A stretch of 64,000 bases of DNA from Vulcanimicrobiota bacterium (GTDB lineage Bacteria > Vulcanimicrobiota > Vulcanimicrobiia > Eremiobacterales > Eremiobacteraceae), in NCBI GenBank assembly GCA_963805945.1, contig CAWDVP010000008.1, forward strand, positions 7,319 to 71,318, given 5' to 3'. The notes beneath the pieces were generated by a model. That model was not told where the DNA came from. It ran no database searches and saw nothing but the letters and a program-made list of their open reading frames with translations. Made by a program: the position numbers and the translations under genes. Below are positions 1,669 through 43,750 of this stretch, piece by piece. Position 1 is the stretch's first letter. Each line of letters starts with the position of its first letter.

Positions 1669-1669
1669 T

Positions 1670-8750: not shown

Positions 8751-10172
8751 TTAAGTCCCGGGACGCACGATCTTCAGGAAATTGGTCTTGCCGCGCACGC
8801 CCATCGGCGTGCCGCCGACGATGACGACCGCCTCGCCCGGCGCGACCTCGCCGCCGCGCAGCAATTCGGCCTCGACGACCGCGATGAGCGCTTCCGTGTC
8901 CGCCGCGAAGTTGATGACCCGCGGCGCGACGCCCCAATCCAGCGTCAGGCGGCGGCCGATGGCTTCGTCGGCGACGAACGCGTAGATCGGCACGCGCGGC
9001 CGGTCCTTGCTCACGATGCGCGCGGAGAAGCCTGAACGGGTGAACGCGGCGATGCAGCGCACGTCGATGCTCTCGGTGATGCTGCAGGCGGCGTGCGAGA
9101 TCGCGTGCGAATCGCTCTCGACGCGCAAGCTACGCCGCACGCGCGGCGGGAAGAACTCCTCCGTCTCGAGCGCGATGCGCACCATGGTCTCCACCGCCTC
9201 CGCCGGGAACTCGCCCGCGGCCGTCTCGCCCGACAGCATGATGCCGTCGGTGCCGTCGATGATGGCGTTGGCGACATCCGATGCCTCGGCGCGGGTCGGC
9301 CGCGGCGCGTGGATCATCGACTCGAGCATTTGCGTCGCGGTGATCACCGGTTTGAGCAGCGCGCCGGCGCGTTTGATGATCATCTTCTGCAGGATGGGCA
9401 CCCGCTCGGGCATCATCTCGACGCCGAGATCGCCGCGCGCCACCATGACGGCGTCGGCTGCGTTGATGATGTCGTCGAGGTGCTCGATCGCCTCCGGCTT
9501 CTCGATCTTCGCGATGACGGGCGTATCCCCGCCGGCCGCCGCGACCGCCGCCTTGGCTTCGACGACGTCGTTCGGATGCCGCACGAACGACAGCGCGAGG
9601 AAATCCACGCCGGCGCGCACCGCGTGCTCCAGATCGACTCTGTCCTTCTGCGTCAGCGCGGGCGACGAGACCGCGACGCCGGGCAGGTTCATGCCGGCGT
9701 GTTCGGAGAGCATGCCGCCGTGGACCACGATGCAGCGCACGACGTCCCCCGACACCGCCTCGACGCGCAGCTCGACCGCGCCGTCGGAGAGCAGGATGCG
9801 GTCGCCAGGCTTCACATCGCGCGGCAGCGCCGCGTAACCGGTGCCGAGGCGTTCGCTCGAACCTTCGATGGGCTGGGTAGTGATCTCGACGCGCGCGCCG
9901 TCAACCAATCGCACCGGTTCGTGACCGGCGAGCGTGCCGACGCGCAGCTTCGGACCTTGCAGGTCGGCGAGCATACCCACCGTGCGCCCGCGCGCCGCGG
10001 CGGCCGCACGGACCAGCGCCAGCCATTCGTCGAGTTCGCCGAGCGTCGCGTGCGAGAGGTTGACGCGGAACACGTCGATGCCGGCATCCACGAGCTTATC
10101 GAGCACGCCGGGCCGCCGGCAGCTCGGCCCAAGCGTGGCGACGATCTTGGTGCGGCGCAAACGCTCGGTCAT
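8751..10172 (-). CDS. pyk: pyruvate kinase
   Basis: RRTKIVATLGPS and full-length PK-type sequence. ATG 10172 overlaps the purN stop as ATGA (the ORF extends to 10190). Confidence 0.92.
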   Translation of the reverse strand: MTERLRRTKIVATLGPSCRRPGVLDKLVDAGIDVFRVNLSHATLGELDEWLALVRAAAAARGRTVGMLADLQGPKLRVGTLAGHEPVRLVDGARVEITTQPIEGSSERLGTGYAALPRDVKPGDRILLSDGAVELRVEAVSGDVVRCIVVHGGMLSEHAGMNLPGVAVSSPALTQKDRVDLEHAVRAGVDFLALSFVRHPNDVVEAKAAVAAAGGDTPVIAKIEKPEAIEHLDDIINAADAVMVARGDLGVEMMPERVPILQKMIIKRAGALLKPVITATQMLESMIHAPRPTRAEASDVANAIIDGTDGIMLSGETAAGEFPAEAVETMVRIALETEEFFPPRVRRSLRVESDSHAISHAACSITESIDVRCIAAFTRSGFSARIVSKDRPRVPIYAFVADEAIGRRLTLDWGVAPRVINFAADTEALIAVVEAELLRGGEVAPGEAVVIVGGTPMGVRGKTNFLKIVRPGT

Positions 10173-10801
10173 CGCTGGCGCTTCAGCCACGCGTTGATCC
10201 CTTCGCGCACGACGCGTTGTTCGACCGGGTGCAGCCGCGCGAGCGCGGCGGCGACGTCATCGCCGGGCTGCAGCGCGAACGGTTCGCGCGCGAGCACGGG
10301 GCCGCGATCGATCGCAGGCGTGATCTCGATGAGCGACGCGCCGGTCGTGCGCGCGCCGGCTGCCAGCGCATCGCGTAACGCGTGCGCACCGCGGAAGACC
10401 GGCGAGACGATGCCGTCGGGCAAGGTGACCTCATCTGCCGCCGGGTCGTCGGGCAGAAAGGCCGGATGGAGATTGAGCACGCCCGCGAAACCGGCGGCCA
10501 AGAACTCCGGCGCGAGCACGTGCATCCAGCCGAGCAGCAGCACGAGCTGCGCGCCGGAACTTCGTACTGCGGCCGCGAGGCGATGCGCGTATGCAGCGCG
10601 AGATTCCGTATCGCGCGCGTACGGCATCACCAGAACCGGCACGCCTGCGCGGCGCGCCCGCTCGAGCGCGAAGGCATCGGGGTTGTTCGACACGACGAGC
10701 CGCACGTCAAGCGCCAGCGCGCCGCTTTTCGCGTCGTCGAGCACCGCCTGGAGATTCGTGCCGTTGCCGGAGGCGAACACCGCCGTCGGAAACGGTTTCA
10801 A
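10169..10801 (-). CDS. purN: phosphoribosylglycinamide formyltransferase
   Basis: FASGNGTNLQAVLD, LLLGWMHVL and NLHPAFLP. TTG 10801 overlaps the purM stop (TTGA). The upstream part of ORF 10169-10915 is out-of-frame purM sequence. Confidence 0.88.
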   Translation of the reverse strand: MKPFPTAVFASGNGTNLQAVLDDAKSGALALDVRLVVSNNPDAFALERARRAGVPVLVMPYARDTESRAAYAHRLAAAVRSSGAQLVLLLGWMHVLAPEFLAAGFAGVLNLHPAFLPDDPAADEVTLPDGIVSPVFRGAHALRDALAAGARTTGASLIEITPAIDRGPVLAREPFALQPGDDVAAALARLHPVEQRVVREGINAWLKRQR

Positions 10802-11806
10802 GAGAGGATGACGGAGGGGCCGCACGGATGCAGCGGCTCGATGTCGCCGATCTCGATCGCGCCGCGCATCGCGGCGATCGCCTTGTCCGCGTCCGCCGGC
10901 GCCACGATCGCGCAAAAACCGATGCCCATGTTGAAGGTCCGGAAGGCGACGTCGCGCTCGAGCGCGGCCTCGCGCGCGACGAGCGCCACGATGTCGGGGA
11001 CGGCCCAGCGCTGCGGATGCAGGCGCGCGGCGACGCCGGCGGGCAGCGCCCGCGGCAGGTTATCGAGCAGTCCGCCGCCGGTGATGTGCGCCATCGCCTT
11101 CACCGCGACGCCGGCGGCCTGCGCCGCTCGGATCGGCGCCGAGATAGCTCGGATGGACCGCCAGGAGCGCGTCGGCGATCGTCGCCGCGCCGAGGCGTTC
11201 GCTCCAGCGCGCCGCCGGCAACGTGTGCCGCACGAGTGAATACCCGTTCGTGTGGAATCCGTTGGAGGGCAGGCCGATGATGCGGTCGCCGACCGCGACC
11301 CGCGTCACGTCGATGAGCATGTCGCGCTCGACCGCGCCGACGATCGTGCCCGCGAGATCGAAATGCGCGGGCTGATACAACCCCGGCATCTCCGCAGTCT
11401 CGCCACCGAGCAGCGCCATGCCGTTCTCGGCGCACGCCGAGCCGATGCCGCCGACGATCGCCGCCGCCATCGCTGGGTCCAGCGTCCCGACCGCGAGGTA
11501 GTCCAAGAAGAACAACGGGCCTGCGTTGAGGCACAGGATATCATTGATGCAGTGGTTGACGAGGTCGCGGCCGATGGTGTCGTAGCGCCGCAGCTCGGCG
11601 GCGACCAGCAGCTTCGTGCCCACGCCGTCCGTGCTGGCGACGAGCACCGGCTCGCGGAAGCCGCTCAGCGCGAAGCAGCCGCCGAAACCCCCGATGCCAT
11701 CGAGCACGCGGGGATCCCTGCGCTTCGGCAGCACGTCCCGGTAACGGGCCACGGCTTCGTTGCCCGCATCGATGTTGACACCTGCTCGAGCGTATGCGTC
11801 GGTCAC
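10798..11806 (-). CDS. purM: phosphoribosylformylglycinamidine cyclo-ligase (AIR synthetase); one frame break ~11135
   Basis: VASTDGVGTKLLVA and GGETAEMPG (ORF 11060-11806) continue as VKAMAHITGGGLLDN (ORF 10798-11103). The break can be repaired by removing 1 nt in GGCGCCGATCC. Confidence 0.9.
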
Positions 11807-18595: not shown

Positions 18596-20053
18596 CTAGA
18601 TCTTCTGCAGCTCTCGCACTCGGCCGGTGAGCTCTTCATGGATGCCCGCGGGATAGCGGCCGGTGAAGCAGCCCATGCAGAACTCCTTGCGCTCGCGCGC
18701 GGTGGACGCGACGAGGCCCTCTTCGCTCAAGTACGCGAGCGAATCGGCGTTGATGGTCGTCCGGATCTCGGGCACCGAATGGTTGGCCGCGATGAGCTCT
18801 TCGTACGTTGCCGTGTCCACGCCCAGGAAGCACGGATGGCGCATCGGCGGACAGGTGACCCGGACGTGCACCTCCGTCGCGCCGGCCTTGCGCAGCATGG
18901 CGACGATCTGCTTCGTGGTGGTGCCGCGCACGATCGAATCGTCGACGAGCACGACCCGCTTGCCCGCGAGATTGGCGTGCAGCGGGTTGAACTTCAGCTT
19001 GACGCCCTGCACGCGCATGCGGTGATCCGGATTGATGAAGGTGCGCCCGATGTAGCGGTTCTTCATCAAGCCTTCGATGTACGGGATGCCGGATTCGTCC
19101 GCGTAGCCGATCGCCGCCGCGGTCGCTGAGTCGGGCACGCCCATGACGACGTCGGCTTCGACCGGGCTCTCCTTGGCGACGTTGCGACCCATCTGATAGC
19201 GCGCGAGATACAATTCGCGCCCCGCGACCTGCGAGTCGGGGCGGGAGAAATAGATGTATTCGAAGATGCAGTTCGCCGGCTTCTCGTCCGTCTTGATCAT
19301 GCGGCTGCGCATGCCGTCCTTGTCGATGGTGATGATCTCGCCCGGCAGGATCTCGCGGACGTACTCCGCGCCGATGGTCGCAAGCGCGCAGGATTCCGAG
19401 GCCAGCGCCCAACCCGAGCCGTACTTGCCCAGGCACAGCGGGCGGATGCCCCATGGATCGCGGAAGCCGAAGAGCTGTTTCTCGGTCGCGAGCACGATCG
19501 AGAACGCGCCGATGCACTGGCGCATCGCCGCCTCGATGCGCTCTTCCATCGAGCCCTCGGGGGCGTTGGCGATGAGCCGCGCCATGATGTCCGAGTCCGA
19601 GTTGCTCGTGGGCACGAGCGTGTCGTGGAGCTGGTCGCGCAGCTCGTCGGTGTTCACCAGATTGCCGTTGTGCGCAAGCGCGAACTGCCCGAGGGCGCTG
19701 TCCGACAGCAGCGGCTGCGCGTTGTAGATGACCGACGAGCCGCTGGTGGAGTAGCGCGTGTGCCCCACCGACAAGTAGCCCGGCAGTTCGGCGAGCGTCT
19801 CTTCGGTGAAGATCTGGGAGATGAGCCCCATGTCTTTATGACAGCGCATCGTGTAGCCGTCGGAGACCGCGATACCGGCGCTCTCCTGACCGCGATGCTG
19901 GAGCGAGTAGAGCGCGAAGAACGTGGACCGGGCGACGTCTTCGCCGGGTGCGAAGATGCCGCACACGCCGCACGCGTCGCGGATCGCGTCGTCGCCGCTC
20001 TTGGCCTGCCAGCCGTGGTAGGTCGGGGTGGGAGGCGCGTCGCTCATCGTCAC
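18596..20053 (-). CDS. purF: amidophosphoribosyltransferase
   Basis: N-terminal CGVCGIFA (Ntn Cys), PRTase motif VVLVDDSIVRGTT and C-terminal Fe-S Cys ligands. Intact 485 aa. Confidence 0.95.
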   Translation of the reverse strand: MTMSDAPPTPTYHGWQAKSGDDAIRDACGVCGIFAPGEDVARSTFFALYSLQHRGQESAGIAVSDGYTMRCHKDMGLISQIFTEETLAELPGYLSVGHTRYSTSGSSVIYNAQPLLSDSALGQFALAHNGNLVNTDELRDQLHDTLVPTSNSDSDIMARLIANAPEGSMEERIEAAMRQCIGAFSIVLATEKQLFGFRDPWGIRPLCLGKYGSGWALASESCALATIGAEYVREILPGEIITIDKDGMRSRMIKTDEKPANCIFEYIYFSRPDSQVAGRELYLARYQMGRNVAKESPVEADVVMGVPDSATAAAIGYADESGIPYIEGLMKNRYIGRTFINPDHRMRVQGVKLKFNPLHANLAGKRVVLVDDSIVRGTTTKQIVAMLRKAGATEVHVRVTCPPMRHPCFLGVDTATYEELIAANHSVPEIRTTINADSLAYLSEEGLVASTARERKEFCMGCFTGRYPAGIHEELTGRVRELQKI

Positions 20054-20085
20054 GGCTTCATTTTACCATAGCTGTGCCGTTGGTC

Positions 20086-21378
20086 CTATGCCCCGCGCTC
20101 GTCCCGGACCCGGTCTGCGATGTCGCCTCGATAGCGCAGCCGCGAGCCCTCCGGCACGCGTGCGACATAGGCGGCACAGGCGGCGTATGCGCGGCCCCGC
20201 GCCTCTCCTATCGTGTCGCCGACCGCGGTGATGGTCAAGACCCGGCCGCCGCTTGCTCGCACCGTCTGGCCGTCGAGCGCCGACCCGCCCCAAAAGGCCG
20301 CCACGTGGGGCTCCGCGGAGGGCAGCGGCAGCCGGTCCATCGGGTCCGAGTGTTCCGGATAGCGCTCGGAGGTCAGCACGACGCCGACGCAGGCCGACTT
20401 CGAGAATGTGGGCGCGGGCGCTTTGCCGTCCGCCAGTGCGATCGAATGGAGCAGCTCGAAGAGGTCGGATTCGAGCCGCGGCAGGACGACCTGGGTCTCC
20501 GGATCGCCGAAGCGGGCGTTGAACTCGAGCACGAATGGCCCGCGCTTGGTGATCATCAGGCCTGCGTACAGACAACCCCGGTAGTCGATGCCGTCGGCCG
20601 CCAGGCCGGCGCGCACCGGCTCGATGATGTGCTTGGCGACGCGATTCATGAGGTCGCCGCCGGCGACGTCCGGCGCGGGCGAGTACGCCCCCATGCCGCC
20701 GGTGTTGGCGCCCTCGTCGCCGTCGCGGGCGCGCTTGTAATCGCACGCCGGCGCGAGGACGTACGCGCGCGCGCCGTCGCACACCGCCATGACGGAGACC
20801 TCTTTGCCTTCGAGGCGCTCCTCGAGGACGAGCGTGGTGCCGCCGCCTGGCAGCGAGCGTTCGCCATACCAGCGCTCGATGGTCGGTTTGGCTTCTTCCG
20901 CTGAATCAAAGACGACGACGCCCTTGCCGGCGGCAAGGCCGTCGGCTTTGACGACGATGCCGCCTTGCCAGTTGCGCAGGAAGCGTTCGGCCTGTTTGCG
21001 GTCGTGCGCGACCTTGAACGCAGCGGTGGGGATGCCCCAGCGCAGCATGCACTGCTTGGCGAACGCCTTGCTCGACTCGAGCCGCGCGCCGCTGCGCCCC
21101 GGCCCGAACGTCGCGATCCCCGCTTGGCGCAGCGTGTCGGCGACGCCCGCCGCCAATGCCGCTTCCGGCCCGATCACCGCGAGGTCGACCGCTTCTTCTA
21201 CGGCACGGTTGGTGATGGCGTGCGTGTCCGTAGCGGAGATGTCGGACCAATTCGTGCCGAGCAGCGCCGTGCCCGCATTGCCCGGCGCGGCGACGATCGC
21301 TTCGACCTGCGGCGACTGCGCCAATTTCCATGCGAGCGCGTGTTCACGCGCTCCTGATCCGACGACGAGTACCTTCAC
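20086..21378 (-). CDS. purD: phosphoribosylamine--glycine ligase
   Basis: MKVLVVGSGAREHALAWKL and an ATP-grasp core. Intact 430 aa. Confidence 0.95.
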   Translation of the reverse strand: MKVLVVGSGAREHALAWKLAQSPQVEAIVAAPGNAGTALLGTNWSDISATDTHAITNRAVEEAVDLAVIGPEAALAAGVADTLRQAGIATFGPGRSGARLESSKAFAKQCMLRWGIPTAAFKVAHDRKQAERFLRNWQGGIVVKADGLAAGKGVVVFDSAEEAKPTIERWYGERSLPGGGTTLVLEERLEGKEVSVMAVCDGARAYVLAPACDYKRARDGDEGANTGGMGAYSPAPDVAGGDLMNRVAKHIIEPVRAGLAADGIDYRGCLYAGLMITKRGPFVLEFNARFGDPETQVVLPRLESDLFELLHSIALADGKAPAPTFSKSACVGVVLTSERYPEHSDPMDRLPLPSAEPHVAAFWGGSALDGQTVRASGGRVLTITAVGDTIGEARGRAYAACAAYVARVPEGSRLRYRGDIADRVRDERGA

Positions 21379-21416: not shown

Positions 21417-21992
21417 GTGAGCCTCGAGCTTTGGAGCACCATCGCTTCCGTTGGCACGTTCGTCGTGATCACCGCGACGGCGATCGCCGCCGTCATCCAA
21501 CTTATCCACATCCGGAGCGGCAACCAGATCGCGATCCTCAATGACTTTCGCATCGCGACGGAAGATCCAGAATTCCGCGCAGCGATGGAGTTCATCTACA
21601 CGCTGCCGTCCAAGGTCGGCGATCGCGAGTTCCGCGCCTTGCTCGAACGCGACACGTTGCCGGTGGAGTTCTACCCGATTCATCGAGTGGGGCGTCTCTA
21701 CGAGCTGTTCGGATTCTACGTCAATCGCGGCATACTTGATGCCGACATGGTCTGCGACCTGTGGGCACCCGTCATCCAAGGGGTGTGGGACAACATGGCG
21801 GACACCATCGTCGTGATGCGGCGTTCGCGCGGGCCCGAACTCTTGGAGAACTTCGAATACCTCGCCCTCTTGAGCGCGCGCTATCTCAAACGCAACCAGA
21901 GCGTCTACCCGAAGAACTTGCCCCGCATCGCGCACGCCGATAAATGGGCGGCGCAGGATGCGGCCACGCCGTCTACTCCCACTCGATCGTAG
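21417..21992 (+). CDS. hypothetical membrane-anchored protein (resembles DUF4760 family)
   Basis: 191-aa ORF with an N-terminal TM helix ([24 protein letters not shown]) followed by a helical domain. Its 3' end overlaps the guaA 3' end by 20 nt. Confidence 0.55.
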
Positions 21993-23511
21993 CGGGCGGC
22001 TTGCTCGTGATGTCGTAGGCGATCCGATTGACGCCCGACACCTCGTTGACGATGCGCGTCGCGATGCGCTGCAGCGTCTCCGGCGACAGCCGCGCCCAGT
22101 CCGCCGTCATGCCGTCGTCGCTCGTCACCGCCCTGATGGCGACCATATTGGAATACGTCCGGCCGTCGCCCATGACGCCGACGCTTTGCAGCGGCGTCAG
22201 CACCGCGAAGTACTGCCATGGGATCTCTTCTTCTTTTTCGATCTCCTCGCGCGCGATCGCATCGGCGCGGCGCAGGACGTCGAGGCGTTCGCGCGTGACC
22301 GCGCCGAGGATGCGCACGGCGAGCCCGGGTCCCGGGAAGGGTTGACGATTCACGATATGTTCGGGCAGCCCGAGCTCCCGCCCGAGCGACCGCACTTCAT
22401 CTTTGAACAGCAGGCGCAGCGGCTCGATGAGCTTGAGGTGCATGCGCTCCGGCAGACCGCCGACGTTGTGATGCGTCTTGATCTTGTGCCCGGCCTTGCT
22501 GTCGGACGTCTTGCTCTCGATGACGTCGGGGTAGAGCGTGCCCTGCACGAGGAAATCGACGCCGGCGAGCTTGGCCGCCTGCCCTTCGAAGACCGCGATG
22601 AACTCGCGGCCGATGATCTTGCGCTTCTCCTCCGGGTCCGAAACGCCCGCCAGCGCGGTGAGGAACTGGTCGGTGGCGTCGATATGGATGAGATTGAGGT
22701 GCAGCTGATCGCGGAACGCCTCGACGACCTGTTTGGCCTCGTCCTGGCGCAACAGGCCGTGGTCGACGAAGATGCAGGTGAGCCGATTGCCGATGGCGCG
22801 CGCCACGAGCGTCGCGGCGACCGCGCTGTCGACGCCGCCGGAGAGGCCGCAGACCGCATTGGACTCGCCGACCTGCGCGCGGATCTGCTCGACGCTGCGC
22901 TCGATGAAGGACGACATCTCCCAGCGCTGCGACAGTCCGGCGACCGAGCGTAGGAAGTTACGGATGACGCGGCGCCCGGCATCGGTGTGCTTCACCTCCG
23001 GGTGGAACTGCACGCCGTACCAGTTCTTGCCCGGATCGCCGACCGCGGCTTGCGCGCAGGCGCCGGTGTGGGCGAGCGTCATGAAGCCCTCGGGCAGCGC
23101 GGTGACCGTGTCGCCATGGCTCATCCACGCCTGCGAGTGGGTCGGCACTTCTTCGAACAGCGGCGAGTGGACCGCGTCGACCACCAGCTCCGTCCTGCCG
23201 AACTCGCGGATCTCGCCGGGCACGACCGTGCCGCCGAGCGCGCGCATCATGTCCTGCATACCGTAGCAGATGCCGAGAATGGGCTTGTCAGATTTCAGCA
23301 GCTCTTCGGGCACGTGCGGCGCGCCGGGCGCGACCGCGCTCTCGGGCCCGCCCGTGAGGATGAACGCTGCCGGCTCGCGCGCCTCGATCTCCGACCAGGG
23401 CGCATCATAGGGCATCACCTCAGAATACACGCCCTCTTCGCGCACGCGCCGCGCGATGAGCTGCGCGTACTGCGCCCCAAAATCGAGGATGACGACCGTT
23501 TCCTGCCCCAT
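21973..23511 (-). CDS. guaA: GMP synthase (glutamine-hydrolysing)
   Basis: GATase (ILGICYGMQ) plus ATP-PPase ([10 protein letters not shown]) plus dimerisation domain ending TIEWE. Intact 512 aa. Confidence 0.96.
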
Positions 23512-24643
23512 CAGGTGCAGACGCTTCCAAGCGTGCCGGCGTCGCGCGCCATGACGACTTCCTTCGCGATGCGTTCACCGACAGAGATCTCGCGACCCCA
23601 ACGGTAGGCGGAATATGGTGTGTACTTCGTGCCGGGCGAACCCGGGATGCGCAGGCTGACGTCGTACACCACGAACGACTTCGGCGGCCCCGCTGCGATG
23701 ACGCACTGCAGCGCGAACGGCCCGATGATGCCCGGCGGCCGCGCGGCGCGCGCCGCCGCGACGAAACGCTCGCCCATGTCGAAGGCCTGCTCGAGCATGG
23801 ATTCGGTGAGCGTCGCCGCGATGTGGCCCGCCTCTTCCATCGAGGGCATGAACGCGCCGCCGAGCGACGCCTGCTCGATCGCCAGCAGATTCCTGGCCCC
23901 GTCGACGTCGGTCTGACGCCGCGTGTCCGTGCCGAGCAGCTCGAGCTCGCCGGACAGCGGCGAATAGAAGAAATTCAGATTGATGCTCGGGCCGAGCACG
24001 TACTCCTCGAGCACCGCGCCCGCGAGGCCTTGCTCGCTGATCACACCCGCGGCGAGGAGCGTCTGGGAACGGCGTTTGTACTGCTCCGGCGAAGCGGCGA
24101 CGAAGAAGGCGCGCTCGAATGTCACCTTGGCGTGCGGCGCCTTGATCAGCGTCAGGCCCGCGATCTCGTCGGGCGAGCGGAGCCGCCGCGGAAAACGGAT
24201 GCCGGCCGCTTCAAGCAGCTTGTACTGGTTGTCGGGCTCGTCGCGCTCCTCCGCGCGCAGCAGGCGGCGCGAGCCGAAGAACGGCACGCGCATGCCGCGT
24301 TCGATCTCGTCGTAGCTGTGGCGCTGGCGTGCGTACACCTCGAATGATCGGTTCGGCACGAAGATCGCGTTGCGCTCGAGCAGCTCTTTCTGGACGTCGG
24401 CGCCAGGATGTCGGCGAAGTGCTCCACCAGCAGCGTCTCGTCGACGCAGCCGGTGCCATCGGGTCGCGCGGCGTAATGTTTGGTATAGGTGCGCTCGCGG
24501 CCGCGCATGCCGACGACGAGATTGCGCAGGCCCTCGCGCTTCGCGCCGAGGCAGACGTCGAGCGCGGAATGGCTGCCGATGCAGCAGAGGGTGAGCGAGG
24601 CGAGGTCGTAACCGGCGAGGACGTCCGCGACGCCCTCACTCAA
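23511..24643 (-). CDS. PurP-like ATP-grasp protein, divergent second paralogue (FAICAR synthetase family); one frame break ~24407
   Basis: N-terminal [21 protein letters not shown] (frame of ORF 24152-24961), then [47 protein letters not shown] (ORF 23511-24359). TTG 24643 overlaps the upstream stop (TTGA). Confidence 0.8.
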
Positions 24644-25761
24644 TTCGCCGGGACTCCCGGTCCTAGGATGCGCGCCGGCTTCGCGGCCAGCTTGCCGTTG
24701 CCGTCGTCGAAGGTGAGCAGGCTGCCCTGATCGAGCACGAGCGACAGGCTGTTGGTGAGCAGCGCGTTCTTGATCTCGCGCGCGATGCGGCGTCCGGTGG
24801 ACATCGGCTCGGTGTAGTTGAGGTACGAATACGGCGAACCGTCGATGAAGAGATTCGTGCCGGCCACGATGCGCGCGGAGATCTCCATGAGGTAGAACTC
24901 CGCCTCCGGGGTCACGATCGTCTCGAGGCAGAACGCGCCGAACAGCCCGCGGTCCGGGCACAGCTCGCGGCTCACGCGCACGACCGCCTCGCCCATGTGG
25001 AAGGCCTCGGCGAGCAGCGACTCGCGCAAGCTGATGGGCTGGTTGCCGATGACGACGTAGCTGGGCTGGATATCCCAGCCCTCCTGGCTCGCCGACGGGA
25101 TGCGTCCGAGCGAGTCGACGTTGCTCTCGTAGCGCCGGTCCATGGACATGATCTCGAGCTTGCCGGTGAGCGGCGAATAGAAATAGTGGATGTACACTGG
25201 CACGCCGATGATGTATTCCTGCATGATGTACTTCTGCTCGACGAGATGCGCGGCGCGCGCGTGGAAATCGTCCGCGTTCTTGACGAAGAGATAGCCCTTG
25301 CCGCCATGGGCGCCGTAGAGCTTCACGATGACCGGCCGGTCGATCTCGCTCGCCTTGGTGAACTGGCGCGGCATCTTCAGGCCTGCCGTGAGCAGCCAGT
25401 CGCGCTGGCGCATTCGATCGGCTTCGAGATCCAGCACGGCCTTGTTGCCGAAGTACGGCGTCGTCATCGCCTTGTGCTGTTCGAGCGAGAGATAGGCGAC
25501 GAACGAGCCGTGCGGCACGAGCACGACTTTGCGCTGGTTGAGCTGATCTTCGACCTTGGGGAAATCGCTGTAACGCGCGATGACCATGACTTCATCGACG
25601 AAGCTGAAGCTCGAGTACAGGCTCTCGTTCTGCGGCGTGGTGACGGCGAGGGTGTGGAAGCCTTCGTCCTTGGCGCCCTTGAGGATCTGCAGCGCGGAGT
25701 GGCTGCCGAGCGTGGCGATGGTGTACAGCGCGGGGAGCTGGGAGGACGATTTGCGTGCCAT
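24640..25761 (-). CDS. purP: 5-formaminoimidazole-4-carboxamide ribonucleotide (FAICAR) synthetase, archaeal PurP type
   Basis: Collinear with archaeal PurP: IATLGSHSALQILKGAKDEGF, VLVPHGSFVAY, HYFYSPLTGKLEIMSMDRRYESNVD, SYVVIGNQPISLRESLL, GRRIAREIK. ATG 25761 is preceded by AAGGAGAA. Confidence 0.88.
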   Translation of the reverse strand: MARKSSSQLPALYTIATLGSHSALQILKGAKDEGFHTLAVTTPQNESLYSSFSFVDEVMVIARYSDFPKVEDQLNQRKVVLVPHGSFVAYLSLEQHKAMTTPYFGNKAVLDLEADRMRQRDWLLTAGLKMPRQFTKASEIDRPVIVKLYGAHGGKGYLFVKNADDFHARAAHLVEQKYIMQEYIIGVPVYIHYFYSPLTGKLEIMSMDRRYESNVDSLGRIPSASQEGWDIQPSYVVIGNQPISLRESLLAEAFHMGEAVVRVSRELCPDRGLFGAFCLETIVTPEAEFYLMEISARIVAGTNLFIDGSPYSYLNYTEPMSTGRRIAREIKNALLTNSLSLVLDQGSLLTFDDGNGKLAAKPARILGPGVPAN

Positions 25762-25801
25762 TATTGCGTGTTCTCCTTCGCTCCGGCGGCCCGAATTCCC
25801 C

Positions 25802-26305
25802 TCACGCCTCCACTGCGACGCGCGCCGGCATCTCCCGGACCGCGAACGTCTGCGAGTGCGGGTTGGCGAGCAGTTCACGACACGCCCATTCGAGGCGCTC
25901 GCGCGGCGCCGGTCCGCCGCTCTCGTACAGCCGCCACGCGACGGCGCGCGACAGCGAGCGCAGCTGCGCCATGCCGAACGGCCCCTGCAGCAGCGAGAGC
26001 AGGCCCGTCGTGTCGTCGTCGCGATCCTCCACGACCGCTTCGAACCCGGTATCGTCATCCGATCGCCGCGCCGCTCCGGTCGTCGAGAGCGAAAGCCGGT
26101 GCTTGTTCGGGTTGAACAGCACTTCGGCGTGCGCGATGCCGCGGGCAAGCGCTTCTGGACTGTCCTCCTCGGCGTTCAAGCGCAGGATCTCCGAGCGCTC
26201 CACCCGCGCGAGCGCATCGTAGCCAAGCTGCCGCAGCGCGACGAGCACCGTGTACGCGGTGTTGTCCGGCATGCGCAGGTCGATCGCGACTTCGACGTCG
26301 CTCAT
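25802..26305 (-). CDS. purS: tandem-duplicated PurS-like protein (two PurS modules in one 167-aa chain)
   Basis: Module 1 is VEVAIDLRMPDNTAYTVLVALRQLGYDALARVERSEILRL..EVLFNPNKH. Module 2 is FEAVVEDRDDDTT..AVAWRLY..CRELLANPHSQ. ATG 26305 overlaps the upstream stop (ATGA). Confidence 0.7.
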   Translation of the reverse strand: MSDVEVAIDLRMPDNTAYTVLVALRQLGYDALARVERSEILRLNAEEDSPEALARGIAHAEVLFNPNKHRLSLSTTGAARRSDDDTGFEAVVEDRDDDTTGLLSLLQGPFGMAQLRSLSRAVAWRLYESGGPAPRERLEWACRELLANPHSQTFAVREMPARVAVEA

Positions 26306-26875
26306 GCCGGTGTCGGCCTCGGCGGCGGGCCGGCGCGGCGCACCAGGGTCACGATGAGCACCACCATGCCGGCGCCGAGGCAGGCGAACGAGACGGCGAG
26401 CCATTTCAGCAACGCGGCCGCGAGGTCCGGCGCGACCGGCGGCGCGATCGCCAGCGCGATGCGCGCTCCCTTGCCGCCGGGATAGCCGCACGTCATGACG
26501 TACGTGCCGACCTGCGGCGCGAGGAACTGCTCGATCGCCTTGCCGGACCTTCCGCCGAAATCGTATTCCGCGTCGAGCGCCGGGGGTTCGAGCGCGAGCG
26601 CGCTGCCGCTCTGCTTCGACGTCACCGCGCACTTGATGTCGGTGGTCGCCGCGGTCGCGAAGGGCTCGCCGTCGACGGTGCTCTTGCGCTCGTAGTACAC
26701 CACGTACTGCCCCGGCGTGCGGACGTGAAGATCCGATCGTGCCGGGCGCGATAAAGCGCACGAAGTCCGATTGCAAGGCCGACGCGTCGCGCAGCGCGCC
26801 GTTGACGCTCGCGACCAGACCGCCGATGATGATGAGCGCGCCGAGCGCGTACCAGAGGCCGCTCGGCTTACGCAT
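26302..26875 (-). CDS. hypothetical two-TM membrane protein embedded in the pur operon; one frame break ~26735
   Basis: MRKPSGLWYALGALIIIGGLVASV..FIAPG (frame of ORF 25802-27556) continues as DLHVRTPGQYVVYYERKS..TYVMTCGYPGG..LLKWLAVSFACLGAGMVVLIVTLV (ORF 26302-27624). ATG 26875 overlaps the purQ end by 8 nt. Confidence 0.6.
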
Positions 26876-27624
26876 GCGGGCGCTCCGCCCGCTCGCGCAA
26901 GAAACGCGCCATGCAGCTGAAGATCGCGTGCCCGGCGACCATCTGGTTCGGGTCGCCCCCGCGCAGCTCGGGCCGCCGGAACAAGACGTTGAGCGCCCAT
27001 GCGGCCCGCTCCGGATGCGGCATGAGCGCCAAGACGTTGCCCCGCTCGTTGCAGATGCCTGCGGCGCGGCGCATCGCCCCGTTGGGCGCGGCACCCGCGT
27101 AGCGAAGGACGATGCGCCCGTGCTCTTCGAGATCGTCGAAGGTCGGTCGCCTCGCCGGTGAAGCGGCCTTCGCCGTGCGCCAGCGCCATGGTCATCGCCG
27201 TGCCGGGCGCGAGACCCGCGGTGAACGCGCAACGCTCCGGCTCCCGATCGGTCACGACCTCGACGAGCTGCGCTTGGAAGTGGTGCGAGGGCAGGTTGTG
27301 CGCGATCGCCACGCGTCCGAGCATGCCGCTCTCCGCGACGATCTGCGCGCCGTTGCACAGCCCGAGCACGAGCTTGCCGCGCTCCGCTTCTTCCTTTATC
27401 ACCGCGACGATCTCGCTCTTGGCCGCGATGGCGCCGGCGCGCACGCGATCCTCGTGCGCGAACCCGCCGGCGATCACGTAGCCGTCGAAGTCGCGCAAGG
27501 CGTTTGGATTCTCCGCCCACCAGAACAGGCGCGCGTCGATGCCGGCGTCGCGGCACGCATCGACCGTCTCGGTCTCGGAGTTCGTGCCGGGGAAGACGAT
27601 GACGGCGACGCCTGGCTCAGGCAT
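26868..27624 (-). CDS. purQ: phosphoribosylformylglycinamidine synthase I (glutaminase subunit); one frame break ~27150
   Basis: VAVIVFPGTNSE, LGLCNGAQ and HGEGRF, then in a second frame NGAMRRAAGICNERGNVLALMPHPER (ORF 26868-27074). Confidence 0.9.
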
Positions 27625-30018
27625 AGAGCTTCTTCAGCGGCTCCGACCACGCGGCCCGCGCGTCGCCGAGCGGTACGTCACAGGCGCCGGCGACGGTGAT
27701 GTTCGGGCCGCCGGTCACACCGAGGCGCAGCGCTCGTGCGGGCACGGCGGCGCAGATCGCTTCGAAGGCGGCGACCTTATCGCGCGCCACTTCGACGACG
27801 AAGCCGGGCTGCTCGCCGAACAGCGCCGCCTGCAGGTCGACATCGCGCGCCCATTCGCGCGGGTCGACGAGACGCGCCCCGAGGGCGCCGTCGGCATCGC
27901 CGCCCAAACACATCTCCGCGACGCAGGCGAGCAGCCCGCCGTCCGAGATGTCGTGCGCTGCGCTGATGACGCCCTCCCGTATCCCGTTGACGACCGCGCA
28001 GAATCGAGGCGTTCGCCTCGGCGTAGTCGAGCGTCGGCAGGTCGGACGCATCGCCGGCAGCGCCGCCGGTCGCCGCTGCCAGCACCGATCCGGCGAGCTT
28101 GTCCGTGCGAGCGCCGAACAGGAAGAGCAGTCGATCCGGCGCGGTGATCTGCATGGTGGCGACGCGGGCGACGTCGTCGACGCGGCCGATGCAGGCGACG
28201 ATCGCCGAGGGTGCGATCGCGCGACCCGCCGACGACTCGTTGTACAGACTCACGTTGCCGCTCACGAACGGCAGCGGCTCGCCCGGCGCGTTGAGCTGGA
28301 GCGATGTCGCCGCTTCCGCGAGTCCCTCGATGCCGTCGACGAGTTGGCGATAGGCGATCGGATCCTCGGGATTGCCGTAGTTCAGGCAATCGGTGAGACC
28401 GATCGGCTGCGCTCCGACTGCCGCGACGTTGCGCGCGGACTCGACGACCGCGTGCGCCGCCGCGAGCTTCGCGCTGAGGGCGCCGTAGCGGGGATTGCCG
28501 TCGACCGAGAGCGCGATGCCTGCGCGCTCGCCGCGCTTGATGATGAAGACGCCGGCGTCCGCATAGCCAGACGGGATGACCGTGGCGCCGCGCACGAACA
28601 TATCGTAATGGGTGATGAGCGGCCGCCGGCTGCACACGTCCAGATGGGAGAGAACCGCCAGCAACGCTCGACTGAAGTCGACCGCTCCATTTCCACGGCG
28701 TATGGAGCGGTCGGATTTATCCGACCGGAGCTCTATCGGCGGCGCCGCTTTCCGCTCCGCCACGATCGGGCCTGCGAGCACGTCGATCGGCAGGTCGATC
28801 AACTTTTCGCCGGCGGCGCGCACGACGTAGCGTTTCGCCTCCGTCACCGTGCCGATGACCGCGGCGCGCGCGTCGGCGGCGATCTCCGGCAGCGTGAAGT
28901 GCTGGTTGTAGATCTGGAGCAGCCGTCGGCGTGAACGATGGCGGCACCGCCCACAGCATGCGCTCTTGCGTCTCCGCGCAGGCGATGACGAAGGGCGGCA
29001 GCCCGCTCGCCGCCTGCGGCACTTTGTCGATGTCGATCGCGGCCCCGAATCCGCCGGCGTTGCTCAGCTCACACGAGCTGCCCATGATGCCGCCGGCGCC
29101 GAGGTCCTTGAAACCGACCTGCAGCCCGAGCCGCTCGATCTCCGCGAACACCGCGTATGACGCGCGCATGATAACGCTCTTGAGGAACGGATCGGGGACC
29201 TGGACCGCGCTCTTGTTGGCCTGCGCTTCCGCCGCGTCGAGCACCAGCGAGGCGAACGCGGCGCCGCCGAAGCCCGATGCGTCGGTCGCCTTGCCGACGA
29301 GCACGAGATCGTATCCGGCGCCGCCGGCCGGCACGCGGCTATGAAGGATGCGGTCGGCGCGCACGATGCCGAGCGCCACCACGTTCACCAGGCAATTGTC
29401 GGTGAACGACTCGTTGAAGTAGACGTCGCCGGCGATGTTCGGCACGCCGACAGCGTTGCCGTACCCGCCGATCCCGTCCACCGCGGCCGCCGCGACGTAT
29501 GCGGCATGCGAGCCGGGCGTCGGCAGGCCGAAGCGCAGCGGATCGGCGCTCGCCACGACCTCGGCGCCCATGCACAACACATCGCGCAGGATGCCGCCGA
29601 CGCCGGTCGCCGCTCCCTCGAACGGCACGACCTGCGATGGATGGTTGTGGCTCTCGTGCGCCACGACGACGCCGTAGTCCACGCCGTCGAGGGTGGCCGC
29701 GCGCAAAATGCCGGCATCTTCGCCGACGCCGACGAGCACGTCGGCGCTGCGCACCGGCAGCGCTTTGAGCAACGGCCGCGAGCTCTTATACGAGCAATGC
29801 TCGCTCCACTGGATCGCGAACGCGTGGGCTTCGGCGCGCGTCGGATCGCGTCCGATGCGCGCTGCGATGGAGCGCAGTTCTTCCGCCGAAAGCGCGAGCG
29901 CCTCGCGGCGTGCGAGGCGCTTGAGGTCCTCGTCCGAGGCGCCGGTGATCGAAAGCGGCTCCGCCGACAAGGAGACTGATGGAGCGGTCGATGCCGTTCG
30001 ACCGTCCTTTTCTCTCAC
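27617..30018 (-). CDS. purL: phosphoribosylformylglycinamidine synthase II; two frame breaks (~28928, ~28000) and two in-frame palindromic-repeat insertions
   Basis: WSEHCSYKSS, HESHNHPS and GGYGNAVGVP (ORF 28717-30018). LLQIYNQHF..ITHYD..SGNVSLYNE (ORF 27777-28847). AAHDISDGGL..tail (ORF 27617-28051). GTG 30018 overlaps the upstream stop (GTGA). An alternative TTG start lies near 29966. Confidence 0.9.
28666..28727. repeat. pair of inverted REP-like hairpins (subfamily B) inside the purL coding sequence
   Basis: GCTCGAC-TGAA-GTCGACCGCTCCA (28666-28689), 13-nt spacer, TGGAGCGGTCGGA-TTTA-TCCGACCG (28703-28727). Translated in frame as ELRSDKSDRSIRRGNGAVDFS. Confidence 0.75.
29980..30007. repeat. 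single REP-like hairpin (subfamily B) at the 5' end of purL
   Basis: TGGAGCGGTCGA-TGCCG-TTCGACCGTCC. If GTG 30018 is the start it encodes DGRTASTAPS. Otherwise it lies in the short gap upstream of TTG ~29966. Confidence 0.75.
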
Positions 30019-31286
30019 GCGCCGGTCTTACCGTTGGGCGGCGCGTTGAGCCGTGCGTCCGATGCGATGACGTTGTTGCGGCTGCGATACTGCGAGACGA
30101 GCACCCTGCCGTAGAGCACGGTGTCGTCGACCGCGAGGATCTTCGCCGCCGCGAGCGCCGCGTTCTCGGGCTCGAGCACGACCGTGCTCGCCACGCCCGA
30201 GGGCAGGTGCAGGCTCGAAAGCACTTCCATGCCGCCCCAATTCGAGCCGATGACCGGACACGCGATGACCGGGTTGGCGGTCGCCGCGTCCACGAACGCG
30301 GAGAGCGCATTGCTCCGCCCGGCGATGGTGATATAGACGACGCGACCCAACGTGCTGTCGGTCTGCTGGATGCGTGTCAGCGCGAACACCGGCGTCTTGT
30401 GCGCCGAGGCGACATGCTTGGTGTTGGGCACGCCGAGCGCGGAGAGCGCCTTGGCGATGCGCTCCGCGTGCGCCGCGTCCGACGCCGAGCCCATCATGAT
30501 CGACACGAAACCACCGCTGCTCTTCTGGAAACGCGCGACCCGCTCGGCGACCTCTTCGTACTTGTCTTTGACGTCGCTCAGATCGCTGTCTTTGGGCGCG
30601 CTCATGTTGCGGTAGACCTGCTTGTCGAGCATGCGCGTCTGGTCGCCCGCCGGCCAGATCCGCCACGAGTCGTTGTCGATGACGTCGGCGAGCAGGATCT
30701 CGCTGCCGCCGCCGGCGCTCGGGATGCGGCCGAACTCCACCTTGAGGTCGACGAGCTGGACGTCTTGCTGCTTCCACGCATGGGCGAGGATCTCGAACAC
30801 GAGCCGGGCTTGGTCGCTCATCTCGACGATTTCCGCCGGCGTGGCGATCTTCTCGGCGACGATCTGCTCGGCGGTGTACTGCGGGTCGTGGCGCGCGTCG
30901 TCTTTGAAGAAATACTCGACGAGGCGCGGCGCGAAGATCGTGCCTTGCGCCACGCCCGGGTTGCGCTTGAGGTAGGAGCCGGCCGCGACGCCGCGCACCA
31001 CCACCTCGATCGGGATCATCTCGCATCGGCGTACGACCATCTCGTTGTCGTCGGCGTCTTCGCCGCCGCTCAAGTAGTGGGTCGGCAAGCCGCATGCGTT
31101 GAGCAGGCGGAAGATCCGCGCCGTGGTGAGCGCCGCGAGGCGGCCCTTGCCGGTGATGGTATTGCGTTTGGCGCCGTCGCCGGCGGTGATGCTGTCCTGC
31201 GACGACACGATCACCGCGTCGGGCTGATCCGGGTGCTGGTAGAGGACCTTCGTCTTGCCCCGGGCGACTTCGACTCCCTTATGCAT
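30015..31286 (-). CDS. purCE: bifunctional SAICAR synthetase / class II AIR carboxylase (PAICS-like PurC-PurE fusion)
   Basis: Collinear with animal PAICS as I recall it: GKTKVLY..SQDSITAGDGAKRN, CEMIPIEVVVRGVAAGSYLKRNPGV, FFKDDARHDPQ, LADVIDNDSWRIWPAGD, then SAHKTP, IAGRSNAL, PVIACP and SSLHLPSG (class II PurE signatures). Intact 423 aa. Confidence 0.9.
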   Translation of the reverse strand: MHKGVEVARGKTKVLYQHPDQPDAVIVSSQDSITAGDGAKRNTITGKGRLAALTTARIFRLLNACGLPTHYLSGGEDADDNEMVVRRCEMIPIEVVVRGVAAGSYLKRNPGVAQGTIFAPRLVEYFFKDDARHDPQYTAEQIVAEKIATPAEIVEMSDQARLVFEILAHAWKQQDVQLVDLKVEFGRIPSAGGGSEILLADVIDNDSWRIWPAGDQTRMLDKQVYRNMSAPKDSDLSDVKDKYEEVAERVARFQKSSGGFVSIMMGSASDAAHAERIAKALSALGVPNTKHVASAHKTPVFALTRIQQTDSTLGRVVYITIAGRSNALSAFVDAATANPVIACPVIGSNWGGMEVLSSLHLPSGVASTVVLEPENAALAAAKILAVDDTVLYGRVLVSQYRSRNNVIASDARLNAPPNGKTGA

Positions 31287-32680
31287 GCGTTGCTTTCTCC
31301 ATCGCGCGGACTTTCGCCGCGAAGAGGTGTGCGCGCTCGGCGGCGAGGCCGACGTGCGCCGCGGGTTCTAGGAGTGCTTTCATCTCCGCCGGTTTGAGGT
31401 GGACGGTGAACGCCTCATCCTTTGACAGCATCTCCGGCAGCGGGTTTTTCTCGTCCTTCTCTATCGCTTCCCAGGCCTTCATCGAGGCTTCCCGCAGCTT
31501 CTCGTGCAGCGCCTGCCGGTCGGCGCCGCGCCGCGCCGCCGCCATGAGCACCGCCTCGGTCGCGGCGAACGGGCCGAAGGTGGCGAGGTTCGCGGCGATC
31601 CGATTCTTGTCGACCCGTAGGCCGCTCATCACCTTGCTCGCCAGCGAGACGATCTCGTCGGCGGCCAAAAAGCTCTCCGCCAGCACGAAGCGGCGGTTCG
31701 CGGAATCGTCGAGCGTGCGTTCGAGCAGGTTGTCCGCGGCGTTCTGCCACGTCACCATCGCGTTGGCGGCGATCGGGCCGCGCGAGCGAGCAGATGCGCT
31801 CGCACATGATGGGATTGCGCTTGAACGGCATCGCCGACGAGCCGACCTGTTTGGCCTCGAAGGGCTCGCCTACTTCGCCGAACGGGCTGCTCGCCAGCAC
31901 GCGCACGTCGAAGGCGAATTTGCTCGCGGTCGCGGCGAGCGCGGCGACGTTGGCCACGACGATATAATCGAGGCGCCGCGAGTACGTCTGCCCTGTGATG
32001 AGCGACGCGGTCAGCCCGAACGCCGACATGACGTCGCGTTCGACCTGGTCGGGCGTGACGTCCGAGCCCTTGAGCAGCGCCGCGTACGACGCAGAAGTGC
32101 CCACCGCGCCGCGCAGCCCTTTGCTCGGCAGCCACGCGGCGAGGCATTTCAGATTCTCGTAGTCGAGATAGAGATCGTGCGCCCACAGGCTCATGCGATA
32201 GCCGAGCGTCGTGGGCTCGGCCGCCTGCAGATGCGTGTACGCCATGCACGGCAGGTCGGCGTATTTCTCGATCTGCCCGGCGAAGACATCGAGCAGCGAG
32301 CGCAGCCCGTCGCTGAGCATCGAAAGCGCCTGCTTCAGGCGCGCGGTCTCGACGTTGTCCTCGACGTCCATGGAGGTCGCGCCGAGGTGCAGCTTGCCGC
32401 CGCCGAGCTTGGCCTGCCTCGCGTAGACGCGCAGTTCGGCCATGAGGTCGTGATGGATCTCTTTTTCGATCTCGTGGGCTGCCGCCAGATCCACCGCGTC
32501 CACGTGGCGGCGCAGGTCCGCCAGCTCTTCCTCGGTGACCAGGCCCGCCTTGGCCTGCGCGGTCGCCAGCTCGAGCCAGAGCCGGCGCCACATGCGGCGT
32601 TTGGTCTCCTCGGAGAACAGTTCGCGCATAGCGGGACGGCCGTATCGCCAGGAAAACGGTGAGGAATACGCTGTTGTCAC
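31279..32680 (-). CDS. purB: adenylosuccinate lyase; one frame break ~31778
   Basis: HLGATSMDVEDN and GSSAMPFKRNPIMCERI (ORF 31415-32680) continue as MVTWQNAADNLLERTLDDS.. (ORF 31279-31758). The 3' end overlaps the purCE start by 8 nt. Confidence 0.92.
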
Positions 32681-32791: not shown

Positions 32792-33818
32792 CTATTTCCG
32801 CGCCGTGAGGCGCACGATCACTTCTTCGAGCGCTTGGTCAGCCTGACGCCGGCCCGTGATCGAACGCTCGAGCGCCGCCATCGTGACGTCGACACGCTCT
32901 TTCAATTCTTTCTTCGACAGGCCGCGTCCGACGCCCAAGAGCTTGTTGACGCGCCACGCGTTCTGACCGCTCGCGGTGGCGTATTCATTGCCGCGCGCGC
33001 CGTTGTGCAGTTCCCAGATGATCTGCTGCTCGCCGGCGAGCCACACTAGCGGGCCGATCGCCGCGCTCGGATCGGTCGTGAGCTCCTTCGCGAGCTTGAG
33101 CGCGAGATCGGTTTTGCCGTCGTTGATCGCGCCGGCGAGGTCCCAGAACTTCACATCGCTGCTCGGCAGCGCGTACTCGCGCACGTCCGCCTCCTTGATG
33201 TCCTTCTTCAGCAGCGACAGCAGGTCGATGGCGTTCTTGATCTCGGCGACGTTCTCGAGCGAGGCGAGCGCGTTCACCGCGCCGGCGTCCATCGCCACCT
33301 TGATCTGCGCGGCATAGTCCTCGATGTACTTCTTGCAGCCCGCCGCGTTGAGCGTCACGTCGATGACGATCGAATCGTCGCAGGCCTTGGCGAATGCCGC
33401 CGCCTCGTCCATCGGCTTGCGTCCTTGCGGCCTGGAAGGCTTGCCGCTGTGGTCGATGAGCAGCAGCGCCTGCTCGGGCGTGTCTTCCGCTGCGGAGACG
33501 ATCTCGTCGCGGTCTTCCTTCTTGAGATCGATGGTGCCGCGCACCACCACGACGCGGCGCGCGGCGAGGAACGGCATCGCGGCGGTCTTCTCGGCGATCG
33601 CGCCCAAGCCGCCCGCGCCGCGCGCATCCACGACGTCGACGTTGAGCGCGCGCATCGATGCATCGGGCACTGCCGCGGCGAGATCAGCCGTGCCACGACC
33701 TCGTCCGCGAGGATCGTCTCCTTGCCCGCGATCACCACGAGCCGAGGCGGCCAGTGCGGCTGGGCTGGCGGCGAACTGCAGAGTAGCCGATCTTGCCCGC
33801 CGGCTTCTTCGCAGGCAC
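32792..33818 (-). CDS. holA: DNA polymerase III delta subunit; start uncertain, 1-3 frame breaks in the first ~60 codons (~33672, ~33735, ~33780)
   Basis: [19 protein letters not shown] (ORF 33355-33738), then [34 protein letters not shown].. to the end of ORF 32792-35026. Candidate starts are GTG 33818 and GTG 33738. Confidence 0.75.
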
Positions 33819-33819
33819 C

Positions 33820-36220: not shown

Positions 36221-36314
36221 GGTGGCGCTGAAGGTTCTACGCCCCCGGCACACGCGCCCCCCGGGGCACGCGCCGCGCGGGGATGGCGCGTGCTCCGGGC
36301 GAACGCGCCAGCGC

Positions 36315-43636: not shown

Positions 43637-43658
43637 GAACGCCCGTTTTCTGCGCAAC

Positions 43659-43744: not shown

Positions 43745-43750
43745 GACGCG

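Follow-up and report, generated by a model that had tools for sequence, protein, structure and literature searches.

A tandem pair of archaeal-type PurP genes in the purine gene cluster of Eremiobacterota and Patescibacteria

The contig CAWDVP010000008.1 of a Vulcanimicrobiota bacterium (assembly GCA_963805945.1) contains at its positions 7,319 to 71,318, a stretch of 64,000 nucleotides (nt) that is called "the window" here, two tandem genes for proteins of the archaeal-type PurP family. These genes, purP-1 and purP-2 (purP1 and purP2 in the gene orders of related loci), are located on the minus strand within a cluster of genes for the de novo biosynthesis of purines, and both are real genes of a soil bacterium of Candidatus Eremiobacterota, the bacterial phylum that NCBI names Vulcanimicrobiota. 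The initial annotation, made from the sequence alone, had assumed a bacterial host. This was confirmed by the names of the best purP-1 matches (Candidatus Eremiobacteraeota, Baltobacteraceae, Vulcanimicrobiaceae, and Velthaea, with 69-91% identity), by contigs of Vulcanimicrobiota metagenome-assembled genomes (MAGs) with about 76% nucleotide identity to the window across 12-14 kb, and by neighboring genes of bacterial type, namely the fused guaA, holA, and tsaD. The purine genes of the window were mapped by tblastn with proteins of relatives, and the number of 11 given before was about right. The open reading frames (ORFs) and high-scoring segment pairs (HSPs) found, together with the downstream neighbor of purN, were as follows:

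31291..32629, minus strand: purB, by tblastn in two frames, one frameshift
30021..31286, minus strand: purC-purE fusion, by tblastn, with NCBIfam matches to purC (6e-42, residues 6-228) and purE (7.6e-34, residues 261-413)
27623..29976, minus strand: purL, three tblastn HSPs in three frames, two frameshifts
26889..27624, minus strand: purQ, two tblastn HSPs in different frames, one frameshift
25796..26317, minus strand: purS of double length, by tblastn, directly upstream of purP-1, with a weak TIGR00302 match
24640..25761, minus strand: purP-1, intact ORF of 373 amino acids (aa), starting with MARKSSS
23511..24643, minus strand: purP-2, 377 aa after restoring one base, TTG start codon
24395..24402, minus strand: single-base deletion in purP-2, probably the lost G of CCG/GAC, one alignment gap column
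21973..23511, minus strand: guaA for a GMP synthase of the fused bacterial type, ORF of 512 aa with 77% identity to guaA of the related locus L001, directly downstream of purP-2
20110..21360, minus strand: purD, by tblastn
18596..20062, minus strand: purF, by ORF and tblastn
10801..11806, minus strand: purM, by tblastn, one frameshift
10172..10801, minus strand: purN, by tblastn, followed by a gene for pyruvate kinase instead of purH
8754-10256: pyruvate kinase, by Pfam

The ORF of purP-1 was present as described in the initial annotation, with every sequence block quoted there. Its product contained the domains DUF1246 (7.6e-40, 136 bits) and DUF1297 (3.8e-65, 219 bits) in the required order and at Pfam gathering cutoffs of 25 bits and 23.8 bits, respectively, and the best matches in the PDB were 2r84 (PF1517, 2.3e-97) and 2r7k (MJ0136, 3.4e-83). 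In the numbering of MJ0136, purP-1 carries His27, Ser94, Asn258, Ser266, and Arg314 plus an HGGKG loop; Asn258, the contact to the carboxamide of 5-aminoimidazole-4-carboxamide ribonucleotide (AICAR), is Asn240 in purP-1. With 84% identity to the L001 protein versus 60-78% for most others in the tblastn analysis, purP-1 was the most conserved protein of the cluster. A C-terminal extension of about 30 residues (24640-24735) is present in the purP-1 proteins of the window and of the relatives closest to it and is absent from PF1517, MJ0136, and the proteins of more distant Eremiobacterota (340-357 aa).

The TTGA overlap of the two genes was real, being composed of the TTG start codon of purP-2 (24643-24641) and the TGA stop codon of purP-1 (24642-24640), and the stop codon of purP-2 and the start codon of guaA share 1 nt at 23511. 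A PurP gene is indeed located at 23511-24643, but not as the single ORF proposed, because its length of 1133 nt is not divisible by 3. The N-terminal 82 codons with the CIGSHSALD block are in the frame of 24643, the C-terminal 294 codons in the frame that ends at 23511, and the tblastn HSPs change the frame between 24398 and 24395. In a DNA alignment with three intact orthologues (L001, L003, and L004), purP-2 of the window was exactly one base short at about 24397-24400 and otherwise colinear, with no further indel or extra stop codon. The repaired protein contained DUF1246 (2e-35, 122 bits) and DUF1297 (7e-54, 183 bits), and its best PDB match was 2r7k (4.5e-65). By this check with hidden Markov models, purP-1 and the repaired purP-2 both possess DUF1246 plus DUF1297, i.e., they are PurP-family ATP-grasp proteins, as had been assumed. 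The protein purP-2 keeps His27, Ser94, Ser266, and Arg314, has His274 at the position of residue 258 in MJ0136, and contains at positions 161-165 a loop that is 2 residues longer and without glycines where MJ0136 has FPGARGGRGYFI.

PurP proteins are grouped into cluster Ia (MJ0136), cluster Ib or PurP II (PF1517), and cluster II or PurP III (PF0421); the activity of a synthetase for FAICAR (5-formamidoimidazole-4-carboxamide ribonucleotide) was demonstrated in MJ0136 of cluster Ia alone, and clusters Ib and II always co-occur, often as adjacent genes within purine clusters (PMC3261824; PMC6486802). Diagnostic are Asn258 and a (K/R)GG(K/R)G loop for cluster I, and His258 and a glycine-poor loop that is 2 residues longer for cluster II; both clusters share His27/Arg314, which contact the formyl group, and Ser94/Ser266, which contact the AICAR phosphate (Brown et al. 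2011, PMC3261824). Applied to an alignment of the window proteins, their relatives, MJ0136, PF1517, and 62 full-length representatives, the diagnostic residues split the whole PurP family cleanly into two clusters. This family is small: clustering of 1.84 billion proteins at 50% left 334 representatives of it. Owing to Asn258, and with an HGGKG loop that retains the GGKG of the motif, purP-1 was assigned to cluster I; owing to the histidine at position 258, which was present in 38/38 cluster II representatives, and to the longer, glycine-poor loop, purP-2 was assigned to cluster II. The four contacts His27, Arg314, Ser94, and Ser266 were all present in purP-1, purP-2, and their orthologues. 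In the loop at positions 161-165, the Eremiobacterota orthologues of purP-1 have L, Q, A, or H in first place, so that GGKG is kept and the first basic residue is not.

In the trees, purP-1 was located with PF1517 of cluster Ib and not with MJ0136, and purP-2 was inside the His258 clade. The description of purP-1 as an enzyme of the MJ0136 type had therefore to be abandoned, also because its best NCBIfam score of 384.7 bits (equivalog cutoff, 590) was below every equivalog cutoff; purP-2 reached 254 bits at an equivalog cutoff of 556. The second copy, which had been described as a more divergent paralogue, is a paralogue, but instead of being merely divergent it is the ancient cluster II (PurP III) partner. 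As judged by the diagnostic residues and the tree placement, the locus is the archaeal Ib+II pair and did not arise by recent duplication of a gene of the MJ0136 type. Cluster II has an invariant set of its own around the active site (G93 to Arg99; G163 to Glu177 with Arg178; V/I255 to Glu271; N258 to His274; and E310 to Asp328) and keeps the ATP-grasp Lys156, plus His27, Arg228, Glu265, Ser266, and Arg314, with the ligands of ATP and Mg being assigned by conservation. The kept residues together with these invariant ones suggest that the cluster II active site is under selection.

A scan of species-representative genomes yielded at least 574 genomes with a relative of the cluster II protein, and the best 71 of these at least 574 matches were almost all from Eremiobacterota, including four complete chromosomes (OY968762.1, OY970278.1, OY970243.1, and OY969429.1). 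In 6 Pfam-annotated loci, as well as in 57/71 Eremiobacterota loci from species-representative genomes, the pair had this same place in the operon. The gene order in the 6 annotated contexts was mtnA, holA, purB, purC-E, purL, purQ, purS, purP1, purP2, guaA, purD, purF, (pepA, purM, purN). Both purP genes were directly adjacent in 11/71 loci, including the nearest relatives of the window; they were apart by one unrelated gene of about 1.1 kb or by about 3.4-4.8 kb in 46/71 loci, and a contig edge cuts the region in 7/71 loci. As seen in L006 (11004-12128), L013, L021, L025, L033, L044, and others, the insert is in most Eremiobacterota a signal-peptide protein of about 370 aa without a Pfam or NCBIfam family, and elsewhere cytochrome bd oxidase genes or an aminotransferase; the lineage of the window has no inserts. 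A gene between purP1 and purP2 was ruled out as a third component of the system, being this family-less protein or the cytochrome bd genes and not present in the window. Two loci with a typical Eremiobacterota purine cluster, L007 (DASRXC010000080.1) and L046 (DATJRM010000028.1), carry the names Candidatus Binatus sp. and Candidatus Acidiferrales bacterium, respectively, which is probably a mis-binning or mislabelling of MAGs.

The next-best cluster II matches, with 49-52% identity, came from Patescibacteria (Roizmanbacteria, Curtissbacteria, Saccharimonadales, and unclassified ones) and from an unclassified bacterium with a 1.9-Mb chromosome, and Methanosarcinales and Nanohalarchaeota were also among them. 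A cluster I gene was adjacent or at a distance of up to 5 kb in 57/71 Eremiobacterota loci and in 8/9 non-Eremiobacterota loci, including all 7 bacterial ones; in L079 (Nanohalarchaeota), purP2 alone was seen. Bacteria of the candidate phyla radiation (CPR) are generally considered to be poorly equipped for nucleotide biosynthesis. The tandem in the CPR loci was part of a compact, near-complete operon with the order purF-purN-purD-purL-purQ-(purM)-purP1-purP2-purB-purE-purC, and purA was present in one of them. Such compact, near-complete de novo purine operons with the PurP pair occur in the Patescibacteria loci L080, L082, L085, and L086, in L084 of Saccharimonadales, and in L078 (OY969576.1). 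The locus L085 contains an apparent purN-purD fusion, and purA is located between purP1 and purP2.

Neighbor-joining trees with 200 bootstraps were calculated separately for cluster I and cluster II. Eremiobacterota were monophyletic in 200/200 bootstraps in both clusters. The group of Eremiobacterota plus five CPR sequences appeared in 200/200 bootstraps in cluster I and in 73/200 in cluster II, where it was recovered in the best tree. Saccharimonadales and OY969576 grouped together in 194/200 (cluster I) and 200/200 bootstraps (cluster II), and both of them with Methanosarcinales in 186/200 and 99/200, respectively. The bacterial purP-1 and purP-2 sequences form deep clades of their own, with 45-52% identity to the nearest others. 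The congruent groupings of clusters I and II indicate a joint inheritance or transfer of purP1 and purP2 and the presence of two or more distinct clades of the pair among bacteria; the pair would have been inherited or transferred as one unit, with a minimum of two entries into bacteria.

The absence of purH from the window, as reported in the initial annotation, held: a PurH (PF01808/PF02142) or a PurO (PF07826) domain was not found in any other window ORF tested, with 1641-5140, 43189-44686, 49020-49758, and 53886-55503 being outside the scan. There was no purH, purV, purO, or purJ in the window or the annotated contexts, the scope being the 64-kb window and contexts of ±10 kb, and no PurH, PurO, or MGS-like domain in the tested ORFs of the CPR operons. 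In the window and all loci, purH was not at its usual neighborhoods, after purN or next to purD, and these clusters did not contain a conserved gene of unknown kind fit to be an alternative cyclohydrolase. As candidates for such a cyclohydrolase, the ORF "hyp339" beside purB was ruled out, being holA (TIGR01128, 114.8 bits), and so were the unknown marginal ORFs of the CPR operons, which were singletons. The PurP pair is at the place in the operon where purH would be expected and may, on the basis of this operon context, replace PurH, as had been proposed. Archaea that possess only the Ib+II pair are mostly without PurH or PurV (PMC6486802).

Extracts of Sulfolobus solfataricus incorporate formate during conversion of AICAR to inosine monophosphate (IMP) (PMC3261824). 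Crenarchaeota have no known IMP cyclohydrolase, and a spontaneous cyclization of FAICAR did not occur under the conditions of the assay (PMC6797443). The best explanation as a whole, which is considered here as probable with some reservation, is that the pair jointly converts AICAR to IMP in place of PurH and that the frameshift in purP-2 is an artefact. The genes purP-1 and purP-2 would be translationally coupled within the de novo operon purB, purC-E, purL, purQ, purS, purP1, purP2, guaA, purD, and purF, and the cluster Ib and II proteins would act together, probably as a hetero-oligomer. The cluster Ib subunit with its canonical Asn258 and GGKG loop would formylate AICAR with formate and ATP, through formyl phosphate, and the cluster II subunit may be either an obligatory partner in this formylation or the catalyst of the ring closure of FAICAR. 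The latter subunit has a remodelled but strictly conserved site, with an arginine beside the AICAR-phosphate serine, Glu-Arg for the glycine loop, and Glu271/His274 at the carboxamide contact. A heterohexamer (PMC6486802) and a FAICAR cyclase (PMC3261824) have both been suggested, and the three roles named in the initial annotation for the second copy, another substrate, a heteromer, or a cyclohydrolase, have already been put forward as speculations on archaea (PMC3261824, PMC6486802).

A more specific version, in which the Ib+II pair is a two-subunit AICAR-to-IMP machine and the cluster II subunit with Glu271/His274 and the Glu-Arg loop is the missing IMP cyclohydrolase or cyclizing subunit, is tentative and should be regarded as a possibility on the unlikely side. 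If true, IMP cyclohydrolases would include a third type, one derived from ATP-grasp proteins, and this type would fill a gap in Crenarchaeota, in many Thermococcales, in Eremiobacterota, and in the CPR bacteria described here. The route to IMP in organisms that possess only the pair is a question standing since about 2008-2011 and was still so in the papers of 2019. The operons, most clearly the compact ones of the CPR bacteria, are independent evidence that the final step or steps toward IMP are carried out by the pair.

Several points weigh against the joint conversion of AICAR to IMP by the pair. The gene purP1 was not found within the available upstream flank in 7/71 loci, this flank being 2.3 kb in L022 and 10 kb in the other six, and most Eremiobacterota have 1-3 unrelated genes between purP1 and purP2, so that a tight coupling is not universal. 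The trees were neighbor-joining trees only, with a limited sample of cluster I that was gathered through the PurP-2 query. FAICAR synthetase activity was not seen with recombinant PF1517 of cluster Ib and PF0421 of cluster II, each assayed separately (as cited in PMC3261824 and PMC6486802), and step 9 is thus unproven for the pair. Methanosarcinales carry the pair plus a full-length purH, and Korarchaeum (K. cryptofilum) carries it without the de novo pathway (PMC3261824), which demonstrates that the pair does not always imply the absence of purH. Moreover, purN in the same cluster indicates that the chemistry of 10-formyltetrahydrofolate is available and that folate-dependent formylation is in use, making a folate-dependent PurH elsewhere feasible. 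The last two points would agree with an auxiliary or salvage role of the pair, with a normal purH located elsewhere and the pair serving as a second, formate-dependent route, for instance, for AICAR from histidine synthesis or under folate limitation. Such a role is unlikely, because three bacterial lineages have the pair within their core de novo operon and the CPR operons hold every other step, purH being the one missing. The lack of purH at its usual neighborhoods and the position of purP-1 as the most conserved gene of the cluster speak against this role, too.

Even less likely is that the pair performs a chemistry other than that of MJ0136, for instance, with a different formyl donor or with a different imidazole or ribonucleotide as the substrate, which would make the label "FAICAR synthetase" wrong for both proteins. 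The inactivity of PF1517 and PF0421 with formate, ATP, and AICAR (PMC6486802) would fit, as would the scores of both window proteins far below all NCBIfam equivalog cutoffs and the remodelled phosphate loop and carboxamide contact of cluster II. Both proteins, however, keep His27/Arg314 and Ser94/Ser266, PF1517 binds ATP and AICAR (PMC6486802), the operon context is consistently that of de novo purine synthesis, and the conversion of AICAR to IMP in extracts of S. solfataricus is formate dependent (PMC3261824).

The joint conversion of AICAR to IMP as the preferred explanation includes an artefactual frameshift in purP-2. Further frame switches of the tblastn matches in the window were located in mtnA (2), purB (1), purL (2), purQ (1), purM (1), and pepA (1), and a gene for a class-III aminotransferase was split. 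The frameshifted genes outside the purine pathway were as follows:

33926-34842: mtnA
11964-13531: pepA
34911-36319: class-III aminotransferase

This amounts to at least 9 indels besides that in purP-2 within conserved or essential genes that span about 12 kb, which points to an error-prone assembly and suggests that the window is an uncorrected long-read assembly, where a reading based on ORFs is unreliable. Many of the related MAGs belong to an "MFD" series, and purP-1 was frameshifted in three long-read MAGs of this series. The orthologues of purP-2, with 373-381 aa, gave a single in-frame match in 86/86 related loci. Because of the similar frameshifts nearby and the intact frame in all 86 loci, the frameshift in purP-2 is very probably an artefact of sequencing or assembly. 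Programmed frameshifting was ruled out, since all orthologues are in frame at this site. A true, recently inactivated pseudogene in this strain, with purP-1 working alone, would agree with the frameshift at about 24398 in the sequence as given but is very unlikely in view of a single indel without another defect in 1.1 kb, the intact class-specific catalytic residues, the frameshifts also in the essential purB, purL, purQ, and purM of the same window, and the in-frame purP-2 in all 86 other loci.

In a survey of 1,403 complete genomes in 2019, PurP proteins were found only in archaea (PMC6486802). A literature search did not yield a paper on PurP in WPS-2, Eremiobacterota, Patescibacteria, or CPR, and the supplement of the Vulcanimicrobium alpinum genome paper contained nothing relevant on purH, purP, or IMP cyclohydrolase. 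Public pipelines already annotate Eremiobacterota proteins as PurP, and the pair and its co-occurrence are known from the archaeal literature. New here is the predicted Ib+II pair throughout Eremiobacterota and in Patescibacteria, in de novo purine operons without purH in the contexts examined. PurP, treated so far as an archaeal signature, has now a wider known range, with two genes that move as a unit. The mesophilic bacterial versions, from a phylum with one cultured member, could ease testing of the role of the pair. As a lesson for annotation, the name "formate--phosphoribosylaminoimidazolecarboxamide ligase" is given to both paralogues without experimental support.

Other features of the window and its relatives were observed in addition. 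PurS is about twice as long as normal (171-194 aa in relatives), looks like a tandem duplication, and has the weak TIGR00302 match to its first half only. The purC-purE fusion protein (421-425 aa) contains an N-terminal SAICAR synthetase and a C-terminal aminoimidazole ribonucleotide carboxylase/mutase, in the same domain order as in animal PAICS; no purK is present in the purine cluster, and distant Eremiobacterota possess a 400-aa version of this protein with a SAICAR_synt match alone on record. The guaA orthologues contain the Pfam domains GATase and GMP_synt_C. The genes holA (DNA polymerase III delta) and mtnA (methylthioribose-1-phosphate isomerase), at 32795-34842 on the minus strand of the window, are directly upstream of purB throughout Eremiobacterota, an odd yet stable association. 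The region 1641-5140 of the window contains long open frames on both strands with a high GC content at third codon positions, among them a minus-strand ORF of 1157 codons and several plus-strand ORFs rich in V, T, A, and G.

Compared to known systems, the two genes resemble most the archaeal Ib+II pair (PF1517/PF0421; adjacent genes in Sulfolobales, Pyrobaculum, and Korarchaeum): they belong to the same two subfamilies by their diagnostic residues, purP-1 being about 51% identical to PF1517, and they co-occur, often adjacently, in purine clusters usually without PurH or PurO nearby. Unlike in archaea, the host is bacterial (Eremiobacterota, with the pair also in Patescibacteria), mesophilic, and of high GC content, and the window pair is located in a bacterial-type operon with purN and a fused guaA. 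With MJ0136 (cluster Ia; EC 6.3.4.23; PDB 2r7k), the window proteins share the fold, the domain pair, the residues for formyl and AICAR-phosphate, and the ATP-grasp lysine, and purP-1 also Asn258 and the glycine loop. MJ0136, however, acts alone and pairs with PurO, and the window proteins, at only 42% (purP-1) and 36% (purP-2) identity to it, are outside cluster Ia and under the equivalog cutoffs, being an Ib+II pair predicted from sequence. The bifunctional PurH of bacteria, an AICAR formyltransferase and IMP cyclohydrolase, has the same place in the logic of the pathway, namely, the only de novo steps without another gene in these operons, but has an unrelated fold and uses 10-formyltetrahydrofolate instead of formate and ATP. 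PurT, the formate-dependent glycinamide ribonucleotide (GAR) transformylase, belongs like PurP to the ATP-grasp superfamily and transfers formate with ATP via formyl phosphate to an amine; unlike PurP, it acts at step 3 on GAR, a step for which the organism of the window possesses the folate-dependent PurN.

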